Positions 8,047 to 60,997 of a stretch of DNA of 64,000 nucleotides are shown here, one piece after another. Each line of letters begins with the position of its first letter. The stretch's first letter is position 1. The stretch comes from PVC group bacterium (lineage in GTDB: Bacteria > Omnitrophota > Gorgyraeia > B26-G9), in assembly GCA_024231215.1 (NCBI GenBank), contig JAAEQR010000195.1, positions 78,755 through 142,754 on the forward strand. Reading direction: 5' to 3'. Below the pieces are notes generated by a model. That model did not search any database. It saw only the letters and a list, made by a program, of their open reading frames with translations, and was not told where the DNA came from. The position numbers and the translations under genes were made by a program.

Positions 8047-8244
8047 TGCTTCCCCCTCCGTGGCAAAGATAGAATATAATATTATAAAGTAATTGCTATT
8101 GAAAAAAATATACAAGAATATTTTATTATATTCAAAAGTGATGTTTTGTCAAGAGTAAGATGTATACTTTTTGTGATTAATTTTTAAGCATTTTTTCCTT
8201 GACATGATTTATTGATTGTGATAGGTTTGGAGATGCAGAACAAA

Positions 8245-8292: not shown

Positions 8293-8337
8293 AACTATAA
8301 ATCATTTTCGTAGAGATATTTATTATAGGAGACTGTA

Positions 8338-9171: not shown

Positions 9172-9211
9172 CTGATAATGACTTTTAACTTTAATACAGG
9201 AAATAAAAAAT

Positions 9212-10609: not shown

Positions 10610-10627
10610 AATTACAATTAAATTATT

Positions 10628-11119: not shown

Positions 11120-11148
11120 GTACACTTTGTAACCTTAGGAGACAGAAG

Positions 11149-12351: not shown

Positions 12352-12429
12352 GGTAAGGGAGGTAAGATGCAAGTTAAAGAAACAAAGAAAAAAAGAAAAC
12401 TTATTGAAAAAGAAGGAGGAGAGAAAATA

Positions 12430-13767: not shown

Positions 13768-13787
13768 GATATACTAGTTAGAGCAAT

Positions 13788-13830
13788 AAAAAACCGCTTC
13801 TGAGTAAAATTAGAGGCGGTTTTTTTATTT
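13788..13830 (+). terminator. Rho-independent terminator after gdhA
   Basis: AACCGCTTCT-gagtaaaatt-AGAGGCGGTT followed by TTTTTTTATTT. Confidence 0.7.
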
Positions 13831-13911
13831 CCATCGACAAAACTAGAGATAAATAATAAAATATTATGTGTTAACCCGGATTTTATTTTTAACTGGAACT
13901 TATGGAGCGCG

Positions 13912-15300: not shown

Positions 15301-15302
15301 AA

Positions 15303-20500: not shown

Positions 20501-20804
20501 TAAAGGTACCGCGAAAGTTTTAAATTCGAATAATATTAAGACGAAAAAAATGAAAAAGATTGGTGAAGGTAATACGGATATTTTAGAAAATATTCGAAAC
20601 GGGAAGATTAATCTTATTATCAATACGCCTTCCGGAGAAAGAGGGCAATCGGATATGAAGCCAATGCGAAGCCTGGCAGTTATGCACGGAGTTCCGTGTA
20701 TAACGACTATTTCGGGAGCTCAGGCTGCGGTAAACGGGATTGAATCGATGCTTGAAGGAGAGATGTCAGTGACTTCGATCCAGGAATATATTAAACAGAT
20801 CTAA
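17577..20804 (+). CDS. carB: carbamoyl-phosphate synthase large subunit, copy 1
   Basis: 1075 aa. Two ATP-grasp halves and a C-terminal MGS-like allosteric domain. Its start overlaps the carA stop. Confidence 0.9.
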
Positions 20805-20851
20805 CCGCTCACAATAGGGTGAGTAGTAACGTATTCGGGGAGGAATACAGT

Positions 20852-44844: not shown

Positions 44845-44966
44845 TCTGAATATTTCCCTAGATTCGATTTGTTTATTATTGCTTTTTATTGTATAATAAT
44901 AGACTATACCATGTAATATCCGTGGGTTATAGGTGTTGATTGGGAATATCTATCAGAAGGGATTGT

Positions 44967-46574
44967 ATGCCTAAATATTCGTTTGACGCAGTAATTTTCG
45001 ATATGGACGGGGTTATAACCAAAACAGCACTGGTACATGCTCAGGCTTGGAAGCTGGTGTTTGATGAGTATTTGCGTTTGCGGGAAGAACGGGATAATGA
45101 GCCTTTCCGGGAATTTACGCATGAGGTTGATTATCTTAATTATGTAGATGGAAAGCCCAGGCTTGAAGGGATACAGAGTTTTTTAGAATCCCGGGGCATT
45201 AATCTTCCGATAGGAACTCCCGAAGATGCAGCAGATGCTGAGACAGTATACGCTATCGGCAATAAAAAAAATACAAAGTTTAGAGATGTTTTAAATACTG
45301 ATGGAGTAGAAGTTTATCCTTCCACTAAAGCGTTGATCGAAGTTTTGAAAAAAGATGGTATTAAGATTGGAGTTGTTTCTTCTTCTAAAAACTGCGAATT
45401 TGTCTTAGAAGCAGCTGATATGCTTAAATATTTTGATACCAGAGTCGATGGAATGATAGCTGTGGAGCAGAATATTGTGGGTAAGCCCGAAGGCGATATG
45501 TTTATTAAGGCGGCATTAAATTTAGGCACAACTGCGGACAAAAGTGTAGTTGTTGAAGATGCTATATCCGGGGTACAATCAGGACGTAACGGGGGTTTTG
45601 GCCTGGTTATTGGTGTGGCCAGAAGTGATAATGTAGAGGAATTAAATAAAAACGGGGCTGATGTCACGGTTACGGATTTAGAGTATATAAGTGTCGACTG
45701 GATGGAAAAATGGTTTTCCAAAACTTTACCTGCGTTATTTGATGCTTGGGATAATAAAGATAAGATGGTTCAGGGATATGCCGATGTACAAATTGATAAC
45801 ATCGTGATTAACCCGAGTTATTTACGTGATCCGAAAGAGGTTTTATTAGCAGGTAAAAAGCCGGTATTTTTCCTGGATTACGATGGAACTTTGACTCCGA
45901 TTGTAGAACGTCCGGAGCTTGCGGTGATCTCACAAGCGATGAAAGATACTGTGACCCAGCTATCTAAAAAACATACGACTGCAGTTGTCAGTGGTAGGAT
46001 GCGGGAAGATGTAGAGAATTTGGTGGGTATTGAAGGTTTGTTTTATGCCGGTAGTCATGGATTTGATATTTTAGGCGGAGGGGTCTCTATGGTTCAGCCC
46101 GAGGCGCAAGAGACAATACCTTTAGTTACGCAAATAATTGAAAGATTGAAAAAAGAGGTTGGAACAATCGAAGGGGTTATTATTGAAGAGAAGAAATTCA
46201 GCATGGCAGTACATTATCGTTTAGTTGCGGATGAGCATTTAGAGCTGATTGAAGCAGCTGTGCTTGCAGTTGTCGAGGCACATCCTCAGTTACGGTTAAT
46301 GCGCGGTAAAAAAGTATATGAAATACTTCCGGCTATTGATTGGAATAAGGGGAAAGCTGTACGCTGGATTATGAAGGCTATGAATATTTCCTGGGAGGAC
46401 TCAACGGTTGTTTATATCGGAGATGATACTACAGATGAATATGCGTTTCGTGTTGTACGAGGTCGGGGCGTAGGTATTCTGGTTGCAGATGGCCCAAGGC
46501 CTTCGGCGGCTCATTTTCAGTTATCCTCACCGGACCAGACAAGAAAGTTATTTGAAATGCTGATTAAAGAATAA
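44967..46574 (+). CDS. fusion of a beta-phosphoglucomutase-like HAD domain and a trehalose-6-phosphate phosphatase-like (OtsB) domain
   Basis: N-terminal FDAVIFDMDGVITKT motif (beta-PGM class). C-terminal VFFLDYDGTLTPIVERPE ... SGR motif (T6PP class). Start taken at the ATG after RBS GAAGGGA. Confidence 0.75.
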   Translation: MPKYSFDAVIFDMDGVITKTALVHAQAWKLVFDEYLRLREERDNEPFREFTHEVDYLNYVDGKPRLEGIQSFLESRGINLPIGTPEDAADAETVYAIGNKKNTKFRDVLNTDGVEVYPSTKALIEVLKKDGIKIGVVSSSKNCEFVLEAADMLKYFDTRVDGMIAVEQNIVGKPEGDMFIKAALNLGTTADKSVVVEDAISGVQSGRNGGFGLVIGVARSDNVEELNKNGADVTVTDLEYISVDWMEKWFSKTLPALFDAWDNKDKMVQGYADVQIDNIVINPSYLRDPKEVLLAGKKPVFFLDYDGTLTPIVERPELAVISQAMKDTVTQLSKKHTTAVVSGRMREDVENLVGIEGLFYAGSHGFDILGGGVSMVQPEAQETIPLVTQIIERLKKEVGTIEGVIIEEKKFSMAVHYRLVADEHLELIEAAVLAVVEAHPQLRLMRGKKVYEILPAIDWNKGKAVRWIMKAMNISWEDSTVVYIGDDTTDEYAFRVVRGRGVGILVADGPRPSAAHFQLSSPDQTRKLFEMLIKE

Positions 46575-46584
46575 AGGATGTTTT

Positions 46585-49005
46585 ATGAAAAAAGATTTGT
46601 TATGGAAACTTGTTTATAATCGGTTTTATCCGGACGAAGAGGGATTAAGAGAGTCGCTCTGTACGCTTGGAAACGGTTATATGGGCAGCCGGGGAGTGGC
46701 ACCAGAAGTGATTGCTTCTGAAATTCATTATCCGGCTACATACATTGCCGGAATTTATAACCGGACACCGACAGAAATTGCCGGCAGAACAATTTATAAT
46801 GAAGACTTGGTGAATTGTCCGAACTGGACACACCTGGTATTCCGGATTGGAAACGGGAAATGGTTTCGTCCTTTTTCGGCAAAGTTACTTTCGTATCGCC
46901 AGGAACTTGATATGCATAAAGGAATTTTGAGTAGGACTATCCGGTTTCAGACTACGCGTGGACAGAAAACAAAAGTCGAAGAAACAAGGCTTGTGCATAT
47001 GGCTAATCCGCATTTAGCGGCGATCAGGTATATAATTACTCCGGAAAACTATAACGATGTGATTACGGTCAGAACAATGCTGGAAGGATCTGTGCTTAAT
47101 CTAAACGTAGAGCGTTATCGTGAATTAAACACACATCATTTAAAAGCGCATAATGTAGGAAGATTTTCCAAGAACGGTATTTATCTGTCGGCTAAGACCA
47201 GCCAGTCCAATATAGAAATTTGTATGGCGGAAAAAGTAAGGGTTTATATAGCTGATAAAGAGAAGAGACCTGCAGTTGAGGTTTTGCGCAGACATCGAAA
47301 TCAGAATATCGGTCAGGAGATAAGAATTGGTATTAGAAAAGGACAACCTTTGCGTATCGAAAAGATCGTTGGTATTTATACGTCCCGGGATGAAGGATGT
47401 CAGAGTGCGAAGAATGCGGCGATAAAAGTTGCAAAGAGTGCTTCGCAGTTTAAGACTTTATTTGATTCTCATCAAAAAGCATGGGCAAGGCTTTGGGAAA
47501 AATTTGATATAAAGATTGAAGGGCATAAATTTTCACAGAGGGCAATAAGATTGCATATGTTTCATTTGCTTCAGACGGCTTCTGCACATAATGTAAAGAT
47601 AGATGCTGGTTTTCCGGCGCGTGGTTTGCATGGAGAGGCGTATCGCGGACATATATTCTGGGATGAAGTTTTTGCCATGAAATTTTTCTCTTTTAACAGC
47701 TCGGAAGTTGCTGAAGCATTGCTTAGGTATCGCTATCGCCGTTTACAAAAAGCGCGCGATTATGCTAAAGCAAATGGTTATAAAGGTGCGATGTTTCCCT
47801 GGCAAAGCGGATCATCCGGCAGAGAAGAAACACAGGAAGTACATCTTAATCCGATGTCCGGGAAATGGGGTCCGGATTACAGTCGGTTACAAAGGCATGT
47901 ATCATTTTCAATTGTTTATAATGTTTGGCGGCACTGGAGAATTACCGGTGATTTAGATTTTATGGTGCGTTTTGGCGCGGAACTACTTTTATCGATTGCC
48001 CAGTTTGGAGCCAGCCTGGTTCATTTTGACGAAAAGGACGGACGTTATCATACGGAAAAAGTTATGGGGCCTGATGAGTTTCACGAAAAACTGCCGCATA
48101 GCAAACAGCCGGGATTAAAAGATAATGCTTATACCAATGTTATGATTGTGTGGATGTTGTTAAAGGCAGAAGAAGTGCTGGCTATTCTTCCGGATAAAGA
48201 TAAGCAGAAATTGATGAAGAAGTTGAAACTTACTTCTGATGAAACTTCGCGTTGGGAAGATATTACCCGGAAGATGAAAATTATTATGGATGACCGGGGA
48301 ATTATCAGCCAGTTTGACGGATATTTTAAGTTGAAAGAGTTGGACTGGTCTAAATATCGTAAGAAATACAGTGATATTCATCGCTTGGATCGGATATTGA
48401 AAGCTGAAGGCAGAACTCCGGATGCTTACAAAGTATCGAAGCAGGCGGATGTACTGATGATTTTTTATTTATTACGGTTAGGGGAGGTTCAGAGGATATT
48501 TAAACGATTAGGTTATAATTGTGATAAAACACTCTTAAGAAAGAATTACGATTATTATATTAAACGGACTTCGCATGGTTCAACTTTAAGTAAAGTAGTG
48601 CATTGTTTTATTGCGCAATGCCTTGATCGTGAAAAAGAAGTTTGGCGTTGGTTTTTAGAGGTTTTGGAATCGGATATCCAGGATACCCAGGGTGGAACTA
48701 CGCCGGAAGGGATACATACAGGGGTTATGGGCGGTTCCATAGACGCGGTTATTCGCGGCTTTGCCGGTATCCAGATCCTGGATGACCGAATTAAAATTAC
48801 TCCGTGGTTTCCGAAAAATTTGCGAAGAATAAAGTTTAAATTGTGTTATCGTAAACGCTGGATTGATTTTGAAATCACCAAAAAGGAAATAAAGATTCAT
48901 ATTATGGGCAGACGTAAAGTTGTGAATATGCTGCCGATGGAGATAAATTCAAAACTACAGCTTCTTCCTGAGGGCCGGCCGGTTAAGTTTTCTATAAATA
49001 ACTAA
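46585..49005 (+). CDS. GH65-family glycoside phosphorylase (trehalose, kojibiose or Tre6P phosphorylase class)
   Basis: 806 aa. N-terminal LCTLGNGYMGSRG. Catalytic region GLHGEAYRGHIFWDE. Confidence 0.8.
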   Translation: MKKDLLWKLVYNRFYPDEEGLRESLCTLGNGYMGSRGVAPEVIASEIHYPATYIAGIYNRTPTEIAGRTIYNEDLVNCPNWTHLVFRIGNGKWFRPFSAKLLSYRQELDMHKGILSRTIRFQTTRGQKTKVEETRLVHMANPHLAAIRYIITPENYNDVITVRTMLEGSVLNLNVERYRELNTHHLKAHNVGRFSKNGIYLSAKTSQSNIEICMAEKVRVYIADKEKRPAVEVLRRHRNQNIGQEIRIGIRKGQPLRIEKIVGIYTSRDEGCQSAKNAAIKVAKSASQFKTLFDSHQKAWARLWEKFDIKIEGHKFSQRAIRLHMFHLLQTASAHNVKIDAGFPARGLHGEAYRGHIFWDEVFAMKFFSFNSSEVAEALLRYRYRRLQKARDYAKANGYKGAMFPWQSGSSGREETQEVHLNPMSGKWGPDYSRLQRHVSFSIVYNVWRHWRITGDLDFMVRFGAELLLSIAQFGASLVHFDEKDGRYHTEKVMGPDEFHEKLPHSKQPGLKDNAYTNVMIVWMLLKAEEVLAILPDKDKQKLMKKLKLTSDETSRWEDITRKMKIIMDDRGIISQFDGYFKLKELDWSKYRKKYSDIHRLDRILKAEGRTPDAYKVSKQADVLMIFYLLRLGEVQRIFKRLGYNCDKTLLRKNYDYYIKRTSHGSTLSKVVHCFIAQCLDREKEVWRWFLEVLESDIQDTQGGTTPEGIHTGVMGGSIDAVIRGFAGIQILDDRIKITPWFPKNLRRIKFKLCYRKRWIDFEITKKEIKIHIMGRRKVVNMLPMEINSKLQLLPEGRPVKFSINN

Positions 49006-49043
49006 AAAGAAAACGCAACAAAAGATGTTTAGGGGCAAATAGA

Positions 49044-50876
49044 ATGAAAATCGGGGCACATTATATTGGTGACCGTATCTGTAAATTTATAGTTTGGGCG
49101 CCTTTCGCCAATGAAGTCACATTAAAAATTGTCTTGCCGCAAGAATTATTTATTCCTATGAATAAAGATGCATTGGGGTATTGGAGTGTGATTGTAGAAG
49201 AGATTAATCCCGGGACCCAGTATCTTTATAGTCTTGACCAGTCTCAAGAAAAACCCGACCCCGCTTCTTTTTATCAGCCGGATGGAGTGCATGGGCCTTC
49301 CCAAATTATTGATCAAAATAGTTTTTTATGGAAAGATACCGGCTGGAAAGATATCCCTCTAAAAGAAATGATTTTGTATGAATTGCATATAGGTACGTTT
49401 ACTCCGGAGGGGACTTTTAATAGTGCGATTGATAGAGTAGAGCAGTTAGCGCAGTTGGGCATAACAGCTATAGAAATTATGCCTGTAGCGCAATTCCCCG
49501 GGGCTAGGAATTGGGGGTATGACGGGGTATATCCATTTAGTGTTCAGAATTCTTATGGAGGTCCGAAGGGGTTAAAGGAATTTGTGAATGCTTGCCATTT
49601 GAACGGAATAGCTGTAATTCTGGATGTAGTTTATAACCATCTTGGCCCGGAAGGTAATTACTTTTCTGAATTTGGTCCGTATTTTACAAATAAATATCAT
49701 ACTCCTTGGGGCAATGCGCTTAATTTTGATGATGCTTATAGCTATGGGGTGAGAAATTATTTTATTGAAAATGTATTGAGCTGGTTTGATAATTATCATA
49801 TAGACGGGTTACGTCTGGATGCAGTTCACGGAATTTATGATTTAAGTGGAAAACATATTTTAGAAGAATTCGCAGAGGCAGTAGAAGATGCGTCTATGCG
49901 TCAGGGTAGAAAATTATGTTTAATTGCAGAGAGCGAGTTAAATGACACCCGTTTGATAAAATCAAAAGATGTTGGGGGCTATGGAATTGACGCGCAGTGG
50001 TGCGATGATTTTCACCATGCCTTGCATGCTTTACTGACAGAGGAAAAACAGGGCTATTATATTGATTATGGAAAAACAGAACATATCATGACTGCTTTAA
50101 AAGAGGGGTTTGTTTACTCCGGTCAATATTCTGTTTTTCGTAAAAAACATTACGGCAATTCATCGAAAGATATTTCCGGGAATCAGTTTGTGGTATGTGC
50201 GCAGAATCATGATCAGATCGGTAATCGCAGGCAAGGGGAACGCCTGAGCCGGCTGATTTCTTTTGAAGGATTGAAACTAAGCGCGGCAACGGTGATGTTC
50301 TCCCCGTATGTTCCGTTGCTTTTTATGGGGGAGGAATATGCTGAATCTGCGCCGTTTTTATATTTTGTGAGTCATTCCGATGATGATTTGATTGCGTCAG
50401 TGCGTAAAGGCAGAAAAGAAGAGTTCTCTGCTTTTAAGTGGAAAGGAGAGGCTTCTGATCCACAGCAGGAAGAGACTTTTTTAGATTCCAAACTTAACTG
50501 GGGTAAGAGGAATGAAGGAGATGGGAATATCCTTTTGCATTGGTATAAAGAATTGATTGCTTTAAGAACGCGTCTTCCCGCGTTTATTTACGGAGGGAAA
50601 GATACAATGGAAGTCTCTACGGACAAGACGGCTAAAATTGTTTTTGTCCGAAGATGGCATGTCCGGCATGAACTTTCGTTGATTATGAATTTTAGTCAGG
50701 AAGAAGTAAGTTTTAACCCGCAAATTTCCGAAGGTAAATGGAAAAAGCTTATTGACTCATCGGACCTCAAGTGGATGGGTAAGGGTGCGTTATTGCCGGA
50801 TAATATTATGAACAGTCAGAAGGTTAAGATGCCTGCTTGGGGGTTTGCGTTATACGAAAAAGACGTTTTACGATAG
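49044..50876 (+). CDS. treZ: malto-oligosyltrehalose trehalohydrolase
   Basis: 610 aa. N-terminal CBM48-like segment plus a GH13 catalytic core (GYDGV, VILDVVYNHLGPEGN). Confidence 0.8.
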   Translation: MKIGAHYIGDRICKFIVWAPFANEVTLKIVLPQELFIPMNKDALGYWSVIVEEINPGTQYLYSLDQSQEKPDPASFYQPDGVHGPSQIIDQNSFLWKDTGWKDIPLKEMILYELHIGTFTPEGTFNSAIDRVEQLAQLGITAIEIMPVAQFPGARNWGYDGVYPFSVQNSYGGPKGLKEFVNACHLNGIAVILDVVYNHLGPEGNYFSEFGPYFTNKYHTPWGNALNFDDAYSYGVRNYFIENVLSWFDNYHIDGLRLDAVHGIYDLSGKHILEEFAEAVEDASMRQGRKLCLIAESELNDTRLIKSKDVGGYGIDAQWCDDFHHALHALLTEEKQGYYIDYGKTEHIMTALKEGFVYSGQYSVFRKKHYGNSSKDISGNQFVVCAQNHDQIGNRRQGERLSRLISFEGLKLSAATVMFSPYVPLLFMGEEYAESAPFLYFVSHSDDDLIASVRKGRKEEFSAFKWKGEASDPQQEETFLDSKLNWGKRNEGDGNILLHWYKELIALRTRLPAFIYGGKDTMEVSTDKTAKIVFVRRWHVRHELSLIMNFSQEEVSFNPQISEGKWKKLIDSSDLKWMGKGALLPDNIMNSQKVKMPAWGFALYEKDVLR

Positions 50877-50946
50877 CGATACTGTTGCAAAACGCACATC
50901 TGCACATTTTAAAACAGTATCATAATGAATGAGGGGAATTAAAAAT

Positions 50947-53370
50947 ATGAACAAATATATTTGCGTACATGGACATTTCTATCAGCCGCCGCGGGAGAAC
51001 CCGTGGTTAGAGGAGGTTGAACTTCAGGATTCAGCTTATCCTTTTCATGACTGGAATAAGCGTATTACCATTGAATGCTATGCTCCAAACGCGGCATCGC
51101 GTATTCTAGATAATGAAGATAAAATTGTCGATATTGTAAATAACTACGCGCAGATTAGTTTTAATTTCGGTCCAACTTTGCTTTCCTGGATGCAAAGGCA
51201 TATGAATGATACGTATAATATGATTTTAGAAGCAGATAAATTAAGTCTTAAGAATTTCTCCGGGCATGGGTCTGCTTTAGCTCAGGTATATAATCACATG
51301 ATTATGCCGTTGTCTAATTTAAAGGATAAGCAAACGCAGGTGATTTGGGGGATAAAGGATTTTGTAGCTAGATTTAAACGTAAGCCCGAAGGTATGTGGT
51401 TGGCTGAAACAGCTGTGGATACAGAAACTTTAGAAGTTCTGGCTGAACATGATATTAAATTTACGATATTATCTCCGTATCAGGCGCAGAATTTAAGAAA
51501 AATAGGAGATGAAAAATGGATAGATGCAAGTGCGGGAAAAATTGATCCGAAGATGCCGTATCTTTGCAATCTTCCTTCCGGGAAAAAAATTACCCTTTTC
51601 TTCTATGACGGCCCCGTATCTCAAGATATTGCTTTTGGCGGGCTTTTAGATAAGGGGGAAAATCTTGCTAACCGGTTGATCGGAACATTTGGTTCTCAAG
51701 AAGAGCCGCAGTTGGTGCATATTGCTACAGATGGAGAGACTTACGGGCATCATCATTCCTATGGGGAAATGGCTTTATCTTACGGATATAATCATATTAA
51801 AGAAAATAAATCAGCTAATATTACAATTTACGGGGAGTATCTGGAAAAATTTCCACCGACGCATGAAGTACAGATCGCAGAAAACTCATCTTGGAGTTGT
51901 ATACATGGCGTGGAACGCTGGCGTAATGATTGCGGATGTAAGATTGGTTCTGGTCATAACTGGAATCAAGCCTGGCGTGCACCTTTGCGTAAAGCTATGG
52001 ATTGGCTGCGGGATGCGCTTATTGAAGTATATGAGAAAGAAGGGGCGAAGTATTTAAAAGATGTGTGGCAGGCGCGGGATGGGTATATTGAGGTTATCTT
52101 AAATCGCGAAGATAAGAGTGTGAAGGATTTTCTTCAAAAGCACGCTAATGCAGAATTGCCCGAAGAAGATAAAATCCAGGCACTAAAGCTTTTGGAAATG
52201 CAGAGACATGCAATGCTTATGTATACAAGCTGCGGCTGGTTTTTCGATGAGATATCCGGGATAGAGACAGTGCAGATTATGCAGTACGCAGCGCGGGCTA
52301 TACAGATGGCTAAAGAAGCCGGGGGTATTGATTTAGAACCTGGGTATCTTAAGATTTTAAAAAAAGCACACAGCAATATAAAAGAGTCTGAAAACGGAGC
52401 TAAAATATATGAAAAGGCAATTAAGCAGACAGTGCTTGATTTGCACAGAGTTGGTGCGCATTTCGCCGTATCGTCATTGTTTAACGATTATCCCAAGACA
52501 ACCAAGGTGTATTGTTATTCTGTAGAAAACAGAGTTAATGAGCGCGCCGAAGCCGGAAGACAAAAGATTGTTATTGGCCGGGCGCTGGTAAAATCGGATA
52601 TTACTTACGAAGAAGATTTGGTTAGCTTTGCGGCTTTGCATATGGGGGATCATAATCTTTTTGGCGGAGTAAGAGATTATATGGGAGAAGAGCCGTTTGA
52701 TAAAATGCAGGAAGAGATTAAAGGAGCTTTTCAGCGCAGTGATATCTCACAGATAATTCATCTGATAGATCAGCATTTTGGGAGTCACAATTATTCTTTA
52801 TGGCATTTATTTAAAGATGAACAGAGAAAAGTTTTAGATGAGATACTTAATTCCACTCTCGAAGAAATAGAAAACTCATTCAGGCAGATTAACGAACATC
52901 ATTATCCGGTAATGCAGGTTATCAAAGAAATAGATATGCCTTTGCCAAAGATATTATCTACAACATTAGAATTCATGTTTAATGCGGATATCAGAAAGAT
53001 ACTTGATAGTGATGAGATTGATCTTTCCAGGCTGCAAAATTTAGTTGAAGAAGTAAAACGCTGGTCGTTTGTCTTAGATACTACAACTATAAAGTATGTA
53101 GCAAGTAAAAGAATAACTATTTTAATGAAACAATTAGATAAGAATCCCGGCGATTTGAAATTAATTACTACTTTGGGAGCGCTATTTAAATGTTTGAGCG
53201 GACTTAACCTGGACTTAAGTTTATGGCGAGCCCAGAATATATATTTTGATATTCACGCTCAGTTGTATGCGGAATTAGATAAGAAATCCAGAGAGAAAGA
53301 TCGTCATGCCAGAAAATGGATCAGACAGTTTGATCGGCTGGGCAAGTATCTTAGGGTAAGGAGCAGGTAG
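50947..53370 (+). CDS. GH57-family glycoside hydrolase with a long C-terminal extension
   Basis: HGHFYQPPRE and WLAETA catalytic-region motifs. Start taken at MNKYICVHGHF after RBS GAGGGG. Confidence 0.75.
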   Translation: MNKYICVHGHFYQPPRENPWLEEVELQDSAYPFHDWNKRITIECYAPNAASRILDNEDKIVDIVNNYAQISFNFGPTLLSWMQRHMNDTYNMILEADKLSLKNFSGHGSALAQVYNHMIMPLSNLKDKQTQVIWGIKDFVARFKRKPEGMWLAETAVDTETLEVLAEHDIKFTILSPYQAQNLRKIGDEKWIDASAGKIDPKMPYLCNLPSGKKITLFFYDGPVSQDIAFGGLLDKGENLANRLIGTFGSQEEPQLVHIATDGETYGHHHSYGEMALSYGYNHIKENKSANITIYGEYLEKFPPTHEVQIAENSSWSCIHGVERWRNDCGCKIGSGHNWNQAWRAPLRKAMDWLRDALIEVYEKEGAKYLKDVWQARDGYIEVILNREDKSVKDFLQKHANAELPEEDKIQALKLLEMQRHAMLMYTSCGWFFDEISGIETVQIMQYAARAIQMAKEAGGIDLEPGYLKILKKAHSNIKESENGAKIYEKAIKQTVLDLHRVGAHFAVSSLFNDYPKTTKVYCYSVENRVNERAEAGRQKIVIGRALVKSDITYEEDLVSFAALHMGDHNLFGGVRDYMGEEPFDKMQEEIKGAFQRSDISQIIHLIDQHFGSHNYSLWHLFKDEQRKVLDEILNSTLEEIENSFRQINEHHYPVMQVIKEIDMPLPKILSTTLEFMFNADIRKILDSDEIDLSRLQNLVEEVKRWSFVLDTTTIKYVASKRITILMKQLDKNPGDLKLITTLGALFKCLSGLNLDLSLWRAQNIYFDIHAQLYAELDKKSREKDRHARKWIRQFDRLGKYLRVRSR

Positions 53371-53376
53371 GGAAAA

Positions 53377-56127
53377 ATGAAAACGCCACTCGCTACATAT
53401 AGAATTCAATTTAATCCTTCTTTTGGCTTTCAGCAGGCAAAGGAAGTTCTGGATTATTTAAAAGCTTTGGGCATATCTGATATTTATGCGTCTCCCATAT
53501 TTAAGGCACGCAAGGGTAGCGGACATGGATATGATATAGTTGATTCAAATCAGATAAATCCTGAGCTGGGAACAGAGGCTGATTTTGATGCCTTGAGCAA
53601 TTGCGTAACTGAAAAACATATGGGCTGGCTGCAGGATATTGTACCCAATCACATGGCTTTTGATGCGGGAAATAAAATGCTTATGGATGTTCTGGAGATG
53701 GGACGATGTTCTGAGTATTATGAATTCTTTGATATTAACTGGAATCATCCTTATGAAAGTATGCGCGGTAGATTGCTGGCACCGTTTCTGGGCAGATTTT
53801 ACGCGGAGTGTTTAGAAAGCGGCGAAATAGAACTCACCTATAATAAGGAAGGCCTGAGTGTTAATTACTACTCTTTACGTTTTCCTTTAAAAATAGAATC
53901 ATATTCTAGCGTATTAGGTTATCGTATTGATAAACTAGCTAATGGGTCGGACAAAGCGGACGATCTTATTGGTATATTTTCCAGCTTAGGTAAAAAAGCC
54001 GAGAACCGTTATAGTCAACTTGCTCAGGCGAAAAAAGACTTTTGGGAGTTATATATACAAGATACGGGGATTAAAGAATTTATAGATGAAAATGTCCGAA
54101 CATTTAACGGGAGTCCCGGTGATCCTGAGAGTTTTAATTTATTGGATGAGTTACTAGGGCATCAGTGGTTTCGTTTAGCGTTCTGGAAGGTGGCGGCTGA
54201 AGAAATAAACTATCGCAGATTTTTCACGATTAATGAACTTATTTGTTTGAAAATTGATGACCAGGATGTATTAAACCAGACACATGCTTTGATTATTAAA
54301 CTGGTAGAGGAAGGAAAGATTACCGGATTAAGGATAGACCATATCGATGGATTACAAGATCCCCGCCAATATTTAGAGAGATTAAAAGGGGTGGCGAAGG
54401 ATACTTATACGGTTGTAGAAAAGATTCTGATCGATAAAGAGCAGCTGTCTTTGGACTGGCCGGCGCAGGGAACCACGGGATATGATTTTTTAAATCACGC
54501 TAACGGCTTATTTTGCATGAAGAAAAACCAGCGTTCTTTTAACCGGATCTATACAAAATTTACAGGCAGAGGTACATCCTATGAAGGTCTGGCTTGTAAT
54601 AAAAAACGTTTGATTATTAGTAAACATATGGCCGGTAATATCGACAACCTAGCTGTTTTATTGAAACAAATATCCAGCTATAGCCGGCATGGCAGTGATA
54701 TAACATTATATGCTTTAAGACGAGCATTAGTAGAGGTGCTGGCGCATTTTCCTGTGTACCGAACTTATATAAGTCATGATGATTTTACGGATATAGATGC
54801 TGACTATATATTGTCTGCGGTAAAAAAAGCAAAACATATAAGCCCAGGACTTTTTTATGAACTTGATTTTATTGAAAAATTTCTTTTGTTAAAGCCGGAA
54901 CACTATATTCGTGATGAAGAAAGAGAAAAAGTAATCGAGTTTGTGATGCGGTTTCAACAGGTAAGCGGGCCATTGATGGCTAAAGGGGTCGAAGACACTG
55001 TATTTTATGTGTATAATAGATTTTTGTCATTAAATGAAGTGGGTGGAAGTCCTGATAAGTTTGGAATTTTTGTAAAAGATTTTCATAATTTTAATAAAAC
55101 AAGGCAAGCAAATCATCCGTGTTCTTTGAATGCCCTGTCTACGCATGATACTAAACGCGGTGAAGATTTTCGCGCCAGGCTTAACGTGTTTTCTGAAATT
55201 CCCGAGCTTTGGGAGCAGAGTATAAAGCGATGGAACCGGAGTAATAAAAAAATCAAGACAAAACTAAATGCTGTTATTGCTCCGGATAAAAACGATGAGT
55301 ATTTTTTGTATCAGACACTGGCCGGAGCATTTCCTTTTAATGTTGAAGATAGGGATGCGTTTATGGGTCGGCTGAAAGAATACCTGATTAAAGCGGTAAG
55401 AGAAGCAAAGGTCTATACCGCCTGGTTAAAGCCGGATACCGATTATGAAAACGCTTATATAAAGTTTGCCGAAGAGATAATGAACGGTGCGTTTCTAAAT
55501 GAGTTCCTGCCGTTTCAGAAAAAGATTGCGTATTACGGAATATTTAATTCCCTGGTGCAGACACTGATTAAAATGACTGCTCCGGGTGTACCTGATTTCT
55601 ATCAAGGCACAGAGCTTTGGGATTTAAGCCTGGTTGATCCGGACAATCGCAGGCCGGTTGATTTTGTTCAAAGAGAAAAGATGCTTCGAGATATAATGCA
55701 TGGGAAGCAGAATAATCTCAAAGAATTGATCTTGGACCTCTGGAAAAATAAAGAAGACGGCAGAGTAAAGATGTTTTTAATCTATCAGATTTTACAGCAA
55801 AGAAAGGCATTGCCGGAGTTGTTTTTAAAGGGTGATTATGCGGCATTGGATACCGGCGGTAAGTATAAAGATCATGTGGTTGCCTTTGCCAGAACCTATA
55901 AGGATGATACGGCGTTGATTATTGTACCGCGGTTTTTGACAACTTTAGTTGAAGAAGGGGAAAATCCTTTTGGAGAAACTGTCTGGAGTGATACGTATGT
56001 AGCTGTCCCGGATGGGGTGGATAAATGGACAGATGCGATAACTGATCAAGTGATAGAGGGGAAAAGGACATTAGCAGTAAGTGATATTTTTAAGAGTTTC
56101 CCAGGGGCAATGCTAATTAATAAATAA
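53377..56127 (+). CDS. treY: malto-oligosyltrehalose synthase
   Basis: 916 aa, GH13-like. N-terminal TYRIQFNPSFGFQQAKEVLDYLKALGISDIYASPIFKA. Confidence 0.85.
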   Translation: MKTPLATYRIQFNPSFGFQQAKEVLDYLKALGISDIYASPIFKARKGSGHGYDIVDSNQINPELGTEADFDALSNCVTEKHMGWLQDIVPNHMAFDAGNKMLMDVLEMGRCSEYYEFFDINWNHPYESMRGRLLAPFLGRFYAECLESGEIELTYNKEGLSVNYYSLRFPLKIESYSSVLGYRIDKLANGSDKADDLIGIFSSLGKKAENRYSQLAQAKKDFWELYIQDTGIKEFIDENVRTFNGSPGDPESFNLLDELLGHQWFRLAFWKVAAEEINYRRFFTINELICLKIDDQDVLNQTHALIIKLVEEGKITGLRIDHIDGLQDPRQYLERLKGVAKDTYTVVEKILIDKEQLSLDWPAQGTTGYDFLNHANGLFCMKKNQRSFNRIYTKFTGRGTSYEGLACNKKRLIISKHMAGNIDNLAVLLKQISSYSRHGSDITLYALRRALVEVLAHFPVYRTYISHDDFTDIDADYILSAVKKAKHISPGLFYELDFIEKFLLLKPEHYIRDEEREKVIEFVMRFQQVSGPLMAKGVEDTVFYVYNRFLSLNEVGGSPDKFGIFVKDFHNFNKTRQANHPCSLNALSTHDTKRGEDFRARLNVFSEIPELWEQSIKRWNRSNKKIKTKLNAVIAPDKNDEYFLYQTLAGAFPFNVEDRDAFMGRLKEYLIKAVREAKVYTAWLKPDTDYENAYIKFAEEIMNGAFLNEFLPFQKKIAYYGIFNSLVQTLIKMTAPGVPDFYQGTELWDLSLVDPDNRRPVDFVQREKMLRDIMHGKQNNLKELILDLWKNKEDGRVKMFLIYQILQQRKALPELFLKGDYAALDTGGKYKDHVVAFARTYKDDTALIIVPRFLTTLVEEGENPFGETVWSDTYVAVPDGVDKWTDAITDQVIEGKRTLAVSDIFKSFPGAMLINK

Positions 56128-56141
56128 TGGAGAGCTAAGCA

Positions 56142-57632
56142 ATGAAAAAACGAAGTAGCGGAATATTAATGCATATTACATCTTTACCTTCACCGTTTGG
56201 AATTGGTGATATGGGAGATGGTGCTTATAGATTTGTGGATTTTCTGGAGCAGTCAAAACAAAAATCATGGCAGGTACTTCCGTTTAACCCGACAAGCGGG
56301 ATTAACGGACATTCACCGTATAGCAGTATGTCTGCTTTTGGGGCCAATATATTATTGATCAGCCCGGAATTGATGCTAAAAGACGGACTGCTTAGCGAAA
56401 AAGATGTTGATACCTGTCTGGATTCAAACGGTGTAGTTGATTATCCAAAAGTTTTAGAATTCAAAAACAGATTATTTAATATCGCGTTTAAAAAATTTCA
56501 AACTATTGAAGATAAACAGGGGTATACGGATTTTTGCGCGGAAAATGCATATTGGCTGGAAGATTTTGCGATGTTTATTGCTTTTAAAGAGTATTTCCAG
56601 GATAAACTTTGGAGCGAATGGCCGCAGGATATCCGGGACAGAAATCAGCAGGCAGTGATCAATTTAAAAGCGCAGATGAACGGCAAGATTGAAAAAGAGA
56701 AATTTCTGCAGTATTTATTTTTTAAACAGTGGTTTGCGCTAAAAAAATATGCGAACCAAAAAGGCGTAGAGATAATCGGTGATATTCCGATCTATGTTAC
56801 CTATGATAGTGTGGATGTATGGCAGGATCCTTCAGTATTTAAGCTGAACGCGGAAAAAGAACTGAAATACTTAGCAGGGGTGCCGCCGGATTATTTTAGT
56901 AAGACCGGACAATTATGGGGTAATCCTGTCTATGATTGGGATGCGTTGGCTAAAGATAAATACGCCTGGTGGATAAAAAGAATAGAACACAATCTTAAAT
57001 TGTTTGATTGGGTAAGGATTGATCATTTCCGAGGGTTTGTTGATTATTGGCAGGTACCGCTTGGAGAGAAGACAGCGATTGGCGGGGAATGGCAAAAAGC
57101 ACCGGCTTTTGATTTTTTTGAGACTATATTACAGAGATTTCCTGATGCGCCGATTATTGCCGAGGACCTGGGGATTATTACCGATGAAGTCAGGGAAGCA
57201 ATTAAACATTTTGGTTTCCCAGGGATGAAGATATTGATATTTGCGTTTTACGAAGATAAAAAAGACCATCCGTACTTGCCGGATAATTATATAGACAATT
57301 GTGTGGCTTATACCGGAACACATGATAATAATACAGTCAAAGGCTGGTTTGAAAATGAAACACAAGAAGCAGATAAAAAACGTTTGTTTAAATGTCTGGG
57401 CAGGGAAGTGTCCGTAGATGAGCTGCCTTGGGCAATGATTAAATTATTGATGGAATCTAAAGCGAATATGGCTCTTTTTCCGATGCAGGATATTCTGGGT
57501 TTAAAGCAGGAAGACCGCATGAATTTACCCGGGACTTTAGACGGAAACTGGCAATGGCGGCTTAAGCCTGAGCAGTTAACTCCGCAAATCACTGCGCAAT
57601 TAGCGGAAATCACGCTATCTACCAGCAGATAA
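56142..57632 (+). CDS. malQ: 4-alpha-glucanotransferase (GH77)
   Basis: GILMHITSLPSPFGIGDMG N-terminus and a GH77 core. RBS GGAGAG. Confidence 0.85.
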   Translation: MKKRSSGILMHITSLPSPFGIGDMGDGAYRFVDFLEQSKQKSWQVLPFNPTSGINGHSPYSSMSAFGANILLISPELMLKDGLLSEKDVDTCLDSNGVVDYPKVLEFKNRLFNIAFKKFQTIEDKQGYTDFCAENAYWLEDFAMFIAFKEYFQDKLWSEWPQDIRDRNQQAVINLKAQMNGKIEKEKFLQYLFFKQWFALKKYANQKGVEIIGDIPIYVTYDSVDVWQDPSVFKLNAEKELKYLAGVPPDYFSKTGQLWGNPVYDWDALAKDKYAWWIKRIEHNLKLFDWVRIDHFRGFVDYWQVPLGEKTAIGGEWQKAPAFDFFETILQRFPDAPIIAEDLGIITDEVREAIKHFGFPGMKILIFAFYEDKKDHPYLPDNYIDNCVAYTGTHDNNTVKGWFENETQEADKKRLFKCLGREVSVDELPWAMIKLLMESKANMALFPMQDILGLKQEDRMNLPGTLDGNWQWRLKPEQLTPQITAQLAEITLSTSR

Positions 57633-57731: not shown

Positions 57732-59708
57732 ATGGGTATAATGGCAATGAAATCAAGAAGATTAAAATTCATAAACAAACTTATGGCAGTTGTTTTGATC
57801 CAGCTGTTTTTAGGGGGGAGCTCTGCCTGGTGTGGGGAGATTAGTACTTTGTCCCCTCAGATTTTCCTGCAAAATAATTCCTTACTAGATGTTTTTACCC
57901 AAAAGACAGAAGCTGCTATTTTTAGCGTGCCGCATGATGCGCAGTTATTGATGGTGCATGTGAATGAGAGGTGTGATCCTGATTATTATTGGACTAGCAC
58001 AAAGACAGCTAATAACCGGCTTATAGAAATGTTTTCTATTCAGCCTTTAATTTTTGCTTTTCCGGATTCTATGTTTGGCGACAGCTTTGATGCAAAAGAT
58101 ATATATGTGAATACTAATAATGCAGAGATTGTGCCTCCGCAGGGAAGTGTGTCTGAAGAAGAATGTTATGAGTTGACAAGAGGCCTCAATTCTAATTCGT
58201 TTATTCTTACCGGCGGCGCCTGGGGAGAATGTCATTATCAGGCATTTAAGGTTTTGTTGCGTAAGGCAATTAGGGAATGTGCTTCAACTCCACAGATAAT
58301 TTTGCCTAAAGATGCTATTTATGTTTTGTATAATGATTACAAGATGAAGGGTGAGTTTTCTACTCGACCTTTGACAGAGTGCGGAGATCGAAGGTTTTCA
58401 TCAGGATTATGGGACTATTATAAAGCTTTAGATGAATTGGCCGGAGAATATGAAATTTGGGATATAAGCGAGCAGAAGAAGGATCTTTTGCAGAAAAAAG
58501 GCGAAGATTCTAAAGTGAAAATTTTTCTGGTTGATTCTGTAAAGACAGTTGAAAAGGCAATTGTTAATAGTGAAAACCTTAGTTTTAATTCGTTAGAGAA
58601 ACAAGAAAGAAGTATAGTAGATCATATATTGGCAGCATTTGGCACAACACATAAAGACCTGCAATGGAAAAAAGATAAAGGATCGTTTAATATTGCAAAT
58701 ATTGTGCTAACGGATGAAAATAAAGATGTTGTGAGTCAAGTTTTTTTTCCTCTTGAGGAGAAAACTATTGCTTCTGGAAATGTCATGATTCTAGCGTATA
58801 ATGATCTGCCTCTATATTTATGGTTTATTAATGACCAGAAGGAGGCAGAGTATATAAATTTGACATTTTATTATTCTTCTTTATCAAGCAATAAGATTTT
58901 GTTGGGAATGGGAAAAGATATTGTTGATATTTTTGAGCGTCAGGAAATTGTTCGTATGCATGGTTTTGATGCGGGGAATCAGTTTGTTTATATTAATATG
59001 GATCCTAGTAGTAATAGTTATAAGGAGGTAACTATTGGTAATTACAATCAATGGCGGGAAGAATATCTTAATTTGATTTGGATTTTTCCTGGAGTGTGGG
59101 GGCCTGATAGTTTTTCAAGTCGGCTTATTGCTGGAGCAACCGCAGAATTAACAAAGCCGGGGATGAAGGTTTTGGTTATTGGTACAGGTGCGGGTGTAGA
59201 GGCATATATTGCGGCAAATAAAGGTGCTTATGTTGATGCAGTGGATATAAGAAAGATGGCTGTGGAGAATACTAAGATTACTTGTAGCAATACGGATTTT
59301 TCACATAGAGTTAATGCGTTTGTAAATGATATGTATAACGGGTTGGGTAAGTATGATTTGATTGTCTGGAATATGCCGCATTATTGGCCTGATTTACGAT
59401 TGGATGGTTATGCAAAATCTACCAATACTACTGATAAGAATGGACAGATATTATCTCGATTTGCACAAGGAGTTACTGAGCATCTTACAATTAATGGTAA
59501 AGTGGCAATAGTTAATAGCGCTGGAGATCAACTTAAAGTAATTATTAAAAGTTTATTGGAGCAGACTTCCGGATTGAAAATAACACAGATGATGGGAGAG
59601 GAAGATACTCCTTCTCGAATATATATTTTAGAACAGGGCGTAATGGCATTTGAGGAAAATGACAAGATAAAGGCATATAGTGCAGAATTGGTAGGAGAAG
59701 CAATATAA
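57732..59708 (+). CDS. exported or membrane-anchored protein with a C-terminal class-I SAM methyltransferase-like domain bearing an NPPY-type motif IV (NMPHYW)
   Basis: N-terminal signal/anchor (KSRRLKFINKLMAVVLIQLFLGG). Cys-containing central region of about 400 aa. C-terminal VLVIGTGAGVE ... VDAVD ... NMPHYW. Start ambiguous among three ATGs at 57732-57747. Confidence 0.5.
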   Translation: MGIMAMKSRRLKFINKLMAVVLIQLFLGGSSAWCGEISTLSPQIFLQNNSLLDVFTQKTEAAIFSVPHDAQLLMVHVNERCDPDYYWTSTKTANNRLIEMFSIQPLIFAFPDSMFGDSFDAKDIYVNTNNAEIVPPQGSVSEEECYELTRGLNSNSFILTGGAWGECHYQAFKVLLRKAIRECASTPQIILPKDAIYVLYNDYKMKGEFSTRPLTECGDRRFSSGLWDYYKALDELAGEYEIWDISEQKKDLLQKKGEDSKVKIFLVDSVKTVEKAIVNSENLSFNSLEKQERSIVDHILAAFGTTHKDLQWKKDKGSFNIANIVLTDENKDVVSQVFFPLEEKTIASGNVMILAYNDLPLYLWFINDQKEAEYINLTFYYSSLSSNKILLGMGKDIVDIFERQEIVRMHGFDAGNQFVYINMDPSSNSYKEVTIGNYNQWREEYLNLIWIFPGVWGPDSFSSRLIAGATAELTKPGMKVLVIGTGAGVEAYIAANKGAYVDAVDIRKMAVENTKITCSNTDFSHRVNAFVNDMYNGLGKYDLIVWNMPHYWPDLRLDGYAKSTNTTDKNGQILSRFAQGVTEHLTINGKVAIVNSAGDQLKVIIKSLLEQTSGLKITQMMGEEDTPSRIYILEQGVMAFEENDKIKAYSAELVGEAI

Positions 59709-59752
59709 AGAGTTTACCCTGCTTGTATTTTCTTATATAATAACATTTGTTT

Positions 59753-60997
59753 ATGGAAAAAGTTATTCTGGTTACAGTCAAACTTACAGATAGATCCGAG
59801 GCGTGGTCATTAGAAGAGCTTAGTGATGAACTGCGGCTTCTTACCAAAACCGTATGCGCGGATATTGTTGCCGAAATTACCTGCAATCGCAAGTCACCAG
59901 ATCCTTCCTTATATATAGGGAAGGGAAAAGTCAAAGAAATTGCCACAATCGTAAAACAGGAAAAGGCCCAGACAGTTATTTTCAATAATGACCTTTCCCC
60001 TACCCAACAGCGAAATTTAGAAGAATTGCTCAAAGTGAAGACTATTGATCGCACTCAGTTGATCCTGGATATCTTTGCGCGTCATGCCAAAAGTCAGGAA
60101 GGAAAGACCCAGGTTGAGTTGGCCCAATTACAATATTTATTACCCCGATTATCCGGAGAGGGAATTGCGTTGTCTCGGTTGGGCGGAGGTATTGGTACTC
60201 GCGGTCCGGGGGAGCAAAAACTGGAGATTGACCGTCGGCGGATCAGGAAACGCGTAGTTCATTTAAAAGAAGATATTAAGGCTATGGGGCTCCGACGTTT
60301 TGCTTTGAGGAAAAAGCGGATTGATAATGCTTTACCCACAGTTGCATTGGTGGGGTATACGAATGCTGGCAAATCTACGTTACTTAATTCTCTTACCGGT
60401 GCAGGTGCTAAAATGAAAAATGAGATGTTTAGTACTCTTGATCCGATCACTCGCAAATTTGTACTTCCTGATAGCGGCCAAAATATTTTATTTTCAGATA
60501 CAGTTGGATTTTTGCATAAATTACCGCATCATTTGATTGACGCGTTTAAAGCTACGTTGGAGACGGTAGCCGAGGCTGATTTACTGCTTATTGTTTTAGA
60601 TGCTGCCAGTGAAAAGATGCAGCAGCATAGCGATGCAATATGGGAAGTCTTATCTGAGCTTAAAGCCCAGGATAAACCGGTTATTTATGTGTTAAATAAG
60701 ATTGATAATCTAGATAATGATACTCTTCTGGAGCAGTTTAAACTTAAAATAGAAAAAAGCATTTCGATTTCAGCTAAACAGAAGATTAATCTGGAGATGC
60801 TTATTAAACAGATTGAGAGTAGCTTATTTGACTTGATTACAGAAGTAAACGTGTTTATCGAGCACTCTAAAATGAAGATACTTAATTATATCCATGAACA
60901 TGGCAAAGTTGATGTTTGTGAATATACAGAAAACGGCGTTCAAATACAGGCAAAACTACCGATTCCGCTAGCCAAGAAAGTCCTCTCCGAAATATAA
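59753..60997 (+). CDS. hflX: GTPase HflX
   Basis: N-terminal HflX domain and G-domain motifs GYTNAGKST, DTVGF and NKID. Confidence 0.85.
   Translation: MEKVILVTVKLTDRSEAWSLEELSDELRLLTKTVCADIVAEITCNRKSPDPSLYIGKGKVKEIATIVKQEKAQTVIFNNDLSPTQQRNLEELLKVKTIDRTQLILDIFARHAKSQEGKTQVELAQLQYLLPRLSGEGIALSRLGGGIGTRGPGEQKLEIDRRRIRKRVVHLKEDIKAMGLRRFALRKKRIDNALPTVALVGYTNAGKSTLLNSLTGAGAKMKNEMFSTLDPITRKFVLPDSGQNILFSDTVGFLHKLPHHLIDAFKATLETVAEADLLLIVLDAASEKMQQHSDAIWEVLSELKAQDKPVIYVLNKIDNLDNDTLLEQFKLKIEKSISISAKQKINLEMLIKQIESSLFDLITEVNVFIEHSKMKILNYIHEHGKVDVCEYTENGVQIQAKLPIPLAKKVLSEI

Follow-up and report, generated by a model that had tools for sequence, protein, structure and literature searches.

Why should a methyltransferase dependent on S-adenosylmethionine (SAM) stand behind what reads as an export signal? 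The question is raised by an open reading frame (ORF) at positions 57732–59708 (+) of a 64,000-nucleotide stretch, hereafter the window, of contig JAAEQR010000195.1 from the PVC group bacterium assembly GCA_024231215.1 (Omnitrophota), a low-GC organism (0.39). The ORF, which lies exactly where an initial reading made from the letters of the window (the sequence-only reading) had placed it, runs from ATG to TAA and encodes 658 amino acids (aa); the deposited record 'MAG: methyltransferase [PVC group bacterium]' (P0001) is the identical protein, starting at Met6 (57747). The protein, referred to below as the query, consists of a leader, a region A, a region B joined to the methyltransferase, and a weak tail. 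Comparison with its few relatives makes it very probable that the query belongs to an Omnitrophota class of modular proteins tagged by a leader and a tail, and that its methyltransferase is intact. The combination that the sequence-only reading had called odd still stands as a puzzle, but it is a property of a class of modular proteins and not of this gene alone.

The N-terminus carries every sequence feature of an N-in export signal, as its positively charged stretch and hydrophobic segment had suggested at the outset, and these features are conserved in all relatives. The predicted Sec-type leader (57732–57833, +), delineated by hydropathy, charge and a leader hidden Markov model (HMM), comprises an n-region KSRRLKFINK (57750–57779, +) with charges at K7, R9, R10, K12 and K16, an 11-residue h-region LMAVVLIQLFL (57780–57812, +) and a c-region GGSSAWC (57813–57833, +). 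The most hydrophobic 19-residue stretch of the query covers LMAVVLIQLFL (Kyte–Doolittle value 1.67), and this is its single hydrophobic segment. Read by rule, the leader has the positive n-region, the h-region of 7–15 residues and the polar c-region with small residues at −3 and −1 that belong to a Sec/signal peptidase I substrate, A occupying −3 and C −1 (alternatively S −3 and A −1), and signal peptidase I is predicted to cut probably after AWC34, or else after SSA32. Beyond the site lies the conserved post-cleavage motif TLSPQIFLQNNSLLDVF (57846–57896, +), defined in a leader alignment of 10–15 proteins; its class consensus, (T/A/N/K)L(S/A/T)PxIxL....LQxxF, begins 4–17 residues beyond the cut site, and within the window the motif is present only in the query ORF.

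The leaders of the class have 2–8 K/R and at most two, mostly no, D/E ahead of the hydrophobic core and are neutral or acidic after it. The core often reads ...ALVxxQxF..., with an uncharged run of mostly 12–17 residues, and the c-region combines a G/P/D/E breaker with an AXA-type site, small −3/−1 residues being found in all members; sister leaders end in AWA, SWA, AFA, ALA or WAG where the query has AWC. Such a run is of the length usual in cleaved Sec signal peptides and falls short of what a membrane anchor needs. A lipoprotein signal was rejected, since S-A-W-C34 has Trp at −1 (lipobox [LVI][ASTVI][GAS]C) and the Cys is not kept in sister leaders. A Tat signal fits no better: S-R-R-L-K-F is imperfect, the RR is absent from most sisters (KK, KH, IR) and the h-regions are strongly hydrophobic. 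A prepilin-type signal was likewise dismissed on sequence.

The query leader is class-specific rather than a generic signal peptide. A leader HMM built without the query assigned it 31.3 bits, and 32.6 bits when the proteins of locus L020 (including P0009) were also left out, whereas the remaining ORFs of the window (131 scored), several obvious ordinary signal peptides among them, reached at most 3.6 bits. Over 623 ORFs from 19 loci the HMM picked only class members, including the independent 3495-aa protein of locus L003 at 28–29 bits. All relatives, from 430 aa to 6.5 thousand aa (kaa), start with the same type of leader, and each contains exactly one copy, N-terminal and never internal. 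As this holds also for proteins of 3–6 kaa, the idea that the giants are strings of leader-bearing units was abandoned. Elsewhere in the window, a 958-aa protein (41968–44844, +) starts with an ordinary-looking signal peptide, MGRKNYSTVILATILFLFYVVPIICA followed by QP, that does not match the class leader HMM; it carries long HEAT/PBS-lyase-type repeat arrays, for which NblB/CpcE-type models were matched below their cutoffs.

The extreme C-terminus is the other constant end of the class. All complete members smaller than about 2100 aa, the query excepted, end in hydrophobic-hydrophobic-E-Q-A-(I/V)-COOH, the endings observed being LIEQAI, LVEQAI, LFEQAI, IIEQAI, ILEQAI, FVEQAI and YMEQAV, and the giants have a related terminal helix finishing in ...AA, ...SA or ...KA. 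All loci and the window together contain 497 complete ORFs of 100 aa or more; EQA(I/V)-COOH ends nine of them, every one a class member, and its co-occurrence with the leader gives a Fisher p of ~1e-10. An apparent exception is P0010, which has a leader and no tail, followed by an ORF that has a tail and no leader. The pair reads as one gene split by a stop codon, because it is collinear with the single 3495-aa L003 gene in the same slot between pfkB and purB.

Between these ends, the class plan (leader, post-cleavage motif (T)L(S/A)PxIxL...F, cargo, EQA(I/V)-COOH tail) accommodates variable nucleotide- or cofactor-dependent cargo. P0002 carries a DOT1-like methyltransferase, L002 (2044 aa) LOG/lysine-decarboxylase-like, Pol-beta nucleotidyltransferase and methyltransferase domains, P0010 HATPase, MTS and metallophosphoesterase domains, and L003 adenylate-kinase/AAA and MTS domains. 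The query shares region A with P0002, P0003 and P0007, and region B plus the methyltransferase with P0005, P0006, P0008, P0009, P0010 and L003. On one contig (L022:1–30149, ENA ERZ24794671), three giant genes stand in tandem: the first (>4186 aa) encodes phosphoglucomutase domains, the second is P0007 (3382 aa), and the third (>6773 aa), which starts with a class leader (23.8 bits), encodes Glu dehydrogenase, DHQ synthase, GT2 and HATPase domains; the first and second are separated by a gene for an IS200-type Y1 transposase.

Class genes occupy variable chromosomal slots. The query lies between malQ (4-alpha-glucanotransferase; 56142–57632, +; NF011080, 680 vs 477 bits) and the GTPase gene hflX (59747–60997, +; TIGR03156, 438 vs 217 bits), neighbours that had been named from the letters and that NCBIfam models confirm above cutoff. 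The order treY-malQ-[query]-hflX-hrcA-grpE-dnaK in the window becomes treY-malQ-[five genes]-hflX-hrcA-grpE-dnaK-dnaJ in a related Omnitrophota metagenome-assembled genome (MAG), locus L020 (GCA_043826565.1, contig JBDRPX010000037.1), and the flanking proteins of the two are 66–76% identical. The five genes (3974–15817; 1051, 928, 430, 814 and 661 aa) all have the leader, the post-cleavage motif and an EQA(I/V) tail, and four start with MKIKKQIN[HY]IIIFLL; the 430-aa product, P0009, is the closest relative of the B+methyltransferase part of the query and the sole array member with a Pfam domain. Since the same flanks enclose the query in one genome and five tagged genes in the other, the malQ–hflX junction is a variable slot for class genes. 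A 50-aa hydrophobic ORF (L020 3605–3757) lies ahead of the array. The second slot, between pfkB and purB, is occupied in L003 (6119–16606) and in L021 (8874–15773; Ca. Tantalella remota). The L021 pair, 1400 aa with leader and 890 aa with tail, is separated by TAG and 24 nt and collinear with the 3495-aa gene of L003; the split could reflect gene fission, a pseudogene, an assembly error or read-through. Arrays of class genes are also found on L001, L002 and L022.

The methyltransferase (59067–59636, +) is a class-I SAM domain of the MTS/HemK-like type. PF05175 (MTS) matches residues 476–614 with E 9.4e-9 and 35.6 bits, above the gathering threshold of 23 bits, which P0009 and P0010 also exceed. 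In alignment with PrmB/PrmC-type proteins, motif X (FPGVWGPDSFSS, 59085–59120), motif I (VLVIGTGAGVE, residues 480–490, 59169–59201), motif II (YVDAVDI, 59229–59249, with the acidic VDAVD of residues 501–505 at the acidic end of beta-2), motif III (VNAFVNDMY, 59310–59336) and motif IV (VWNMPHYW, residues 545–552, 59364–59387), all on the + strand, fall in register, and N547-M548-P549-H550 sits at NPPY; the motif IV tetrapeptide of the family is NMPH, with NMPQ in one member. G484, G486, G488, E490, D502, D505, N547, M548 and P549 are invariant in six proteins only 30–37% identical to the query, and this retention of SAM-binding and motif IV residues despite such divergence indicates a functional enzyme.

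Motifs I, II and IV, singled out by the sequence-only reading, are thus borne out by a Pfam match above cutoff, by the PrmB/PrmC register and by profile matches in the PDB (9l4q, PrmA, aminoglycoside N-methyltransferases and release-factor glutamine methyltransferase), and profile comparison assigned the C-terminal domain to the methyltransferase fold and to no other. The suggestion that the fold serves non-SAM chemistry such as aminopropyl or polyamine transfer found no backing: no spermidine-synthase-type match appeared at E ≤ 1, and SAM motifs I–IV are invariant in the family. A place in the lineage of (N/D)PP(Y/F/H) amino-methyltransferases is supported by these comparisons. The top NCBIfam models (archaeal HemK2/MTQ2-like, PrmB, PrmA, PrmC) were all below cutoff, with 61.4 vs 162 bits for NF011529, 44.8 vs 87 for the HemK2-related TIGR00537, 32.4 vs 230 for PrmB (TIGR03533) and 22.7 vs 199 for PrmC (TIGR03534). 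PrmA models failed as well (PF06325, 18.9 vs 22 bits; NCBIfam, 25 vs 188–327), the PDB PrmA aligned with the query only from motif X to motif II, and PrmC_N (PF17827) had no match in the query. The nearest sequences outside the clade are generic PrmB/PrmC-like proteins of ~300 aa at 37–46 bits. A PADLOC model, mad2 of the methylation-associated defence system (MADS), matched residues 465–623 with E 4.7e-13; as no further genes of the system lie nearby, this probably reflects generic methyltransferase similarity. A separate HemK-like family of ~480–520 aa, on archaeal and marine metagenome contigs (L005, L010–L019; one locus labelled Methanobacteriota archaeon), has a motif IV W-N-M-P-Y, which shares with the query the change of the first Pro to Met; its C-terminal domain is conserved and ends ...DDLSLLWPDLQLQ. 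This family is the nearest outgroup with the N-M-P variant.

The methyltransferase is accompanied by region B (residues 287–445; 58590–59066, +), an alpha+beta module with invariant W312 and L377-x2-YY381. Region B never occurs alone and always directly precedes this methyltransferase, so that residues 287 to ~635 form one conserved unit. P0009 consists of leader, unit and tail; the unit is also carried by P0010 (1400 aa), L003 (3495 aa), P0005, P0006 and P0008 (4.9–6.5 kaa) and the metagenomic fragments L006, L007 and L009. An AlphaFold2 (AF2) model of region B has a predicted TM-score (pTM) of 0.69 and gave no significant fold match, nor does the region match Pfam; a GNAT- or LolA-like fold was not supported (best Foldseek E 0.15, TM ≤ 0.27). 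We presume region B to be a substrate-recognition domain. The methyltransferase part of the unit is also found in a giant ORF (>5658 aa) of L004, a MAG labelled 'uncultured Planctomycetia bacterium', and of the ENA contig L008, where a related, TLSP-less leader reads KAKRRFKALVSMVTAVAFLSNTLMYDSALA followed by SQ; either other lineages of the PVC group also have the class or the bin carries a wrong label.

Region A (residues 61–284; 57912–58583, +) is an alpha/beta module common to P0002 and P0003 at 36–47% identity, and its core occurs twice in the giant P0007 (3382 aa). The core comprises two invariant stretches, F157-L-GG-x4-C167-H168-x2-AF172 (58200–58247, +) and I189-x2-P-x-DA-x-Y197 (58296–58322, +), in which F157, G161, G162, C167, H168, A171, F172, I189, P192, D194, A195 and Y197 are retained throughout, and the invariant pair C167-H168 suggests a candidate Cys-His catalytic or metal site; five of the seven Cys of the query fall within residues 81–217. 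No significant PDB, Pfam or hhalign match was obtained for region A (AF2 model, pTM 0.72). A motif resemblance to isochorismatase-like cysteine hydrolases was left unproven (Foldseek sub-threshold, hhalign 0.2%, nothing in Pfam), and a LOG/SLOG-like fold was rejected at an hhalign probability of 1.3%.

The two regions, delimited by local comparison of the full query with proteins found by HMMER, had been described as some 400 residues without recognisable fold. The description holds in that residues 1–445 have no significant Pfam or PDB match, no NCBIfam match at E ≤ 1 and, when homologues were scanned one by one with Pfam at E ≤ 10, no recurrent match for their modules; the lone Pfam entry is a stray PBECR5 (residues 242–322, E 0.026, 14.8 bits vs a 25-bit cutoff). 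What does not hold is their treatment as a single block, since two separate conserved modules are present and the second, B, is an integral partner of the methyltransferase. Homologues are very rare. A word-indexed search of 5.8 billion proteins returned the query itself and two Omnitrophota proteins, an exhaustive HMMER search with residues 1–445 against 1.84 billion cluster representatives returned eight proteins, and the methyltransferase part alone gave one weak match in the word-indexed search. A mobile or phage origin was rejected: no relatives of the B+methyltransferase unit were found on viral contigs, and the GC content of the gene (0.365) is only slightly below the window mean (0.388).

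Regarding the immediate surroundings of the gene, consensus matches for a promoter or terminator of its own are no commoner than in shuffled sequence. On the opposite strand, a 169-aa ORF (59545–60054, −) runs across both genes, covering the 3' part of the query and the beginning of hflX; it is unsupported and likely spurious. The slot is preceded by a glycogen/trehalose block (44940–57632, +) that ends with treY (53377–56127) and malQ, and the same block stands before the slot in L020. Farther upstream, two full-length genes for the carbamoyl-phosphate synthase large subunit stand in tandem (17577–20804 and 20819–24049, +; 1075 and 1076 aa; NF003671, 1745 and 1535 vs 599 bits) behind a carA-like ORF (16478–17584).

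From the leader, the cargo and the tail we infer export, cleavage, the role of the tags, the substrate and the site of action along the following path. The leader would take the protein through the inner membrane by Sec and would be cut, probably after AWC34, which would leave the conserved peptide TLSPxIxL...F exposed at the N-terminus. Together with the C-terminal tail it may form a sorting or docking tag that is used in a later step such as secretion, surface display or delivery, with interchangeable enzyme modules between the tags, in the query the putative Cys-His domain A and the B+methyltransferase unit. The methyltransferase, with its NMPH variant of the pocket, would most likely N-methylate a protein or a nucleic acid recognised by B, at an amide or amino nitrogen. 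Action only in or on another cell is proposed because SAM is cytoplasmic; it is not known to occur outside cytoplasms, and no periplasmic pool is known. The bacterium would then be a predator or parasite and the enzyme one of its effectors. Omnitrophota have been proposed to be predators or parasites (PMC10066038). The steps differ in strength. Export of the query is probable from its sequence features, and we believe about as much as we doubt the reading as a whole, in which the query is exported and is an effector-like N-methyltransferase belonging to a tagged class specific to the lineage. That leader, post-cleavage peptide and tail form a previously undescribed, Omnitrophota-specific two-ended sorting or docking signal, which would carry cofactor-dependent 'cytoplasmic' enzymes out of the cell and onto or into host or prey, is a tentative proposal, and equally tentative is the range of its cargo: this methyltransferase, LOG, nucleotidyltransferases and kinases, borne by proteins as small as 430 aa and by giants. 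Action of the query inside a host or prey cell is a more speculative step still. The sequence-only reading had offered a wrong topology, non-SAM chemistry or a surface substrate; these options omit tagged export or delivery of effector-like enzymes, which fits the class best.

Several observations weigh against this proposal. The tail of the query, KAYSAELVGEAI-COOH (59670–59705, +), appears to be a degenerate copy of the class tail, or an uncertain one: it ends in ELVGEAI and fits only a loosened tail pattern, and of 62 window ORFs scored with a leave-out tail HMM the query came out on top, though its 4.1 bits are not significant. The class is drawn from ~20 proteins of a handful of MAGs, and export and cleavage rest on a rule-based reading of the sequence. 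Delivery into another cell is a proposal from class features and the location of SAM, which we rate as rather doubtful, and on the substrate side, A and B lack an assignable fold. An oxidising periplasm devoid of SAM would be an awkward place for both a SAM-dependent enzyme and a free catalytic Cys. The immediate neighbourhoods of the query, of L003 and of L021 contain no secretion genes, and no machinery is linked to the tags. A preprint on the giant genes, in which most detected domains were predicted to be extracellular, itself called some of these placements 'highly unlikely' (bioRxiv 10.1101/2023.11.21.568195).

The main alternative is an enzyme tethered to the membrane on its cytoplasmic side, with the leader acting as an uncleaved anchor or assembly tag, the catalytic modules staying inside and the 'outside' rule misleading for the whole class. 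Every kind of cargo in the class depends on cofactors of the cytoplasm (SAM, ATP, NTPs), secretion genes are absent nearby, extracellular predictions for the giants 'seem highly unlikely' and predictors disagree (bioRxiv 10.1101/2023.11.21.568195), and 46% of long proteins were read as transmembrane (TM)-anchored with a cytoplasmic bulk (bioRxiv 10.64898/2026.06.07.730766). The leaders themselves argue otherwise: the positive-inside rule is strongly and uniformly obeyed (2–8 K/R before the core, neutral or acidic after), a stable TM helix would need more than the mostly 12–17 uncharged residues of the cores, which come with G/P breakers and AXA-type sites in the manner of cleaved signal peptides, and with a single hydrophobic segment there is no second helix to return the chain inside, so that we consider such a tether unlikely. 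The same predicted topology as in the proposed export would also be shared by a periplasmic or surface enzyme whose target is a lipid, the peptidoglycan, a surface protein or a glycan in the envelope of the producing cell itself, with SAM reaching the periplasm or carried out pre-bound, or with the fold used for binding rather than catalysis. The gene adjoins glycogen/trehalose genes, and SRRLKF is loosely Tat-like, Tat being a route for folded, cofactor-loaded proteins. Yet RR is not kept in the class (KK, KH, IR) and the h-regions are far more hydrophobic than those of Tat signals; no periplasmic SAM pool is known, the invariant catalytic motifs speak against a mere binding role, and the neighbours are not conserved partners, as the slot is variable and the unit also occurs in the pfkB–purB slot. 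An own-envelope role is quite improbable on these grounds.

Two further explanations would dispense with export. A housekeeping methyltransferase of translation factors or ribosomal proteins (PrmA, PrmB, PrmC or Mtq2 type) with a miscalled or fortuitous N-terminus is suggested by the nearest recognisable relatives, PrmB/PrmC-like proteins and PrmA, and by the adjacent hflX, which encodes a ribosome-associated GTPase. It is effectively refuted, and we give it hardly any credence: all equivalog cutoffs are missed widely (61 vs 162, 32 vs 230, 23 vs 199 and 25 vs 188 bits), NMPH replaces NPPY, neither PrmC_N nor the PrmA N-domain is present, there are essentially no orthologues among ~5.8 billion proteins, and the leader is kept across relatives and is no annotation artefact. 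As for a DNA methyltransferase of a restriction–modification system or of a MADS mad2-like defence, the PADLOC mad2 match (residues 465–623, E 4.7e-13) and the inclusion of N6-adenine and N4-cytosine DNA methyltransferases in the NPPY class would favour it. The match covers the generic core only, however, the neighbours are malQ and hflX and not defence or restriction genes, Pfam detects no target-recognition domain, the unit was not found on viral contigs, and a signal peptide would be senseless on a DNA-modification enzyme; we regard this possibility as very remote.

Exported effector-like proteins, the reading we prefer, can be compared with several known systems. With the HemK family (PrmC/PrmB, Mtq2/HemK2; PF05175), the query shares the Rossmann fold, motif X, GxGxG, the acidic end of beta-2 and the register of motif IV, but it has NMPH in place of NPPY, stays below every equivalog cutoff, lacks PrmC_N, possesses a private 160-aa domain B and a signal peptide, and has its counterparts in only a few Omnitrophota proteins. 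The query would work like a HemK/PrmB-type amino-methyltransferase, yet it is not a member of the HemK family. The best solved relative of the unit is PDB 9l4q ('Methyltransferase small domain-containing protein'; E 1.1e-7), whose NPPH, with His in place of Tyr, aligns with the NMPH of the query; unlike the query, it is a single domain of 214 aa without B, leader or tail, and ~95 profile positions were aligned. A literature search for 9L4Q found no paper that mentions it.

The Omnitrophota giants ('archaeovorin'-type) come from the same phylum, start with a signal or TM segment and carry methyltransferase, HATPase, LOG and GGDEF-type modules predicted outside, and the unit and region A of the query occur inside proteins of 3.4–6.5 kaa with the same leader. 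The query differs in having 658 aa, one hydrophobic segment and no SecA-like or C39 domains, and in not lying beside a type II secretion system or Tad locus. Polymorphic toxin and effector systems resemble the class in their constant ends, shuffled enzyme cargo, paralogue arrays in a variable slot and fast divergence, but in the class both ends are constant and no immunity genes or secretion-system markers were seen. Secreted methyltransferase effectors such as Legionella RomA, Chlamydia NUE and M. tuberculosis Rv1988 are SAM enzymes that work after delivery into another cell; they have SET or other folds and travel by type III, IV or VII secretion systems and not by a Sec leader. Two-part sorting signals (the C-terminal domain of type IX secretion (T9SS) substrates, PEP-CTERM/exosortase and LPXTG/sortase) likewise pair a Sec leader with a conserved extreme C-terminus, whereas the class tail, of ~6–25 aa, contains neither a TM helix nor a beta-sandwich domain of 80 aa, and no sortase, exosortase or T9SS signature is present. 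EQAI, acidic and then small and hydrophobic, also recalls the C-terminal 'acidic residue + hydrophobics' motif of type I secretion; type I substrates have no N-terminal signal peptide.

That Omnitrophota encode signal-bearing multi-enzyme proteins is already known: 94% of 916 long proteins of the phylum have TM helices or a signal peptide together with a methyltransferase, HATPase, GNAT or HAD module (bioRxiv 10.64898/2026.06.07.730766). The conserved leader motif and the C-terminal tail appear in neither giant-protein preprint (10.1101/2023.11.21.568195, 10.64898/2026.06.07.730766), and a full-text literature search for EQAI with Omnitrophota found nothing. What is added here is a small single-anchor member, two unmodelled domains, the leader/tail code and the chromosomal hotspots.

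Omnitrophota are widespread, uncultured and ultra-small, and their giant proteins join export signals with cytoplasm-type enzymes. The query, of a size that can be cloned and purified, offers a small, tractable case for asking why these bacteria appear to export cofactor-dependent enzymes. If the leader/tail sorting code is true, it would be a new protein-targeting signal and would provide a simple sequence rule for cataloguing the effector repertoire of the phylum; the paradox of an extracellular methyltransferase would become testable, and the small members would be key to the role of the giants. If the proteins instead stay in the cytoplasm, standard topology rules mislead in Omnitrophota, which would be equally relevant for reading the giants. 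The gene itself is a divergent methyltransferase fusion, and its value lies in a compact, testable sequence code that may account for how, or whether, this phylum exports cytoplasm-type enzymes.

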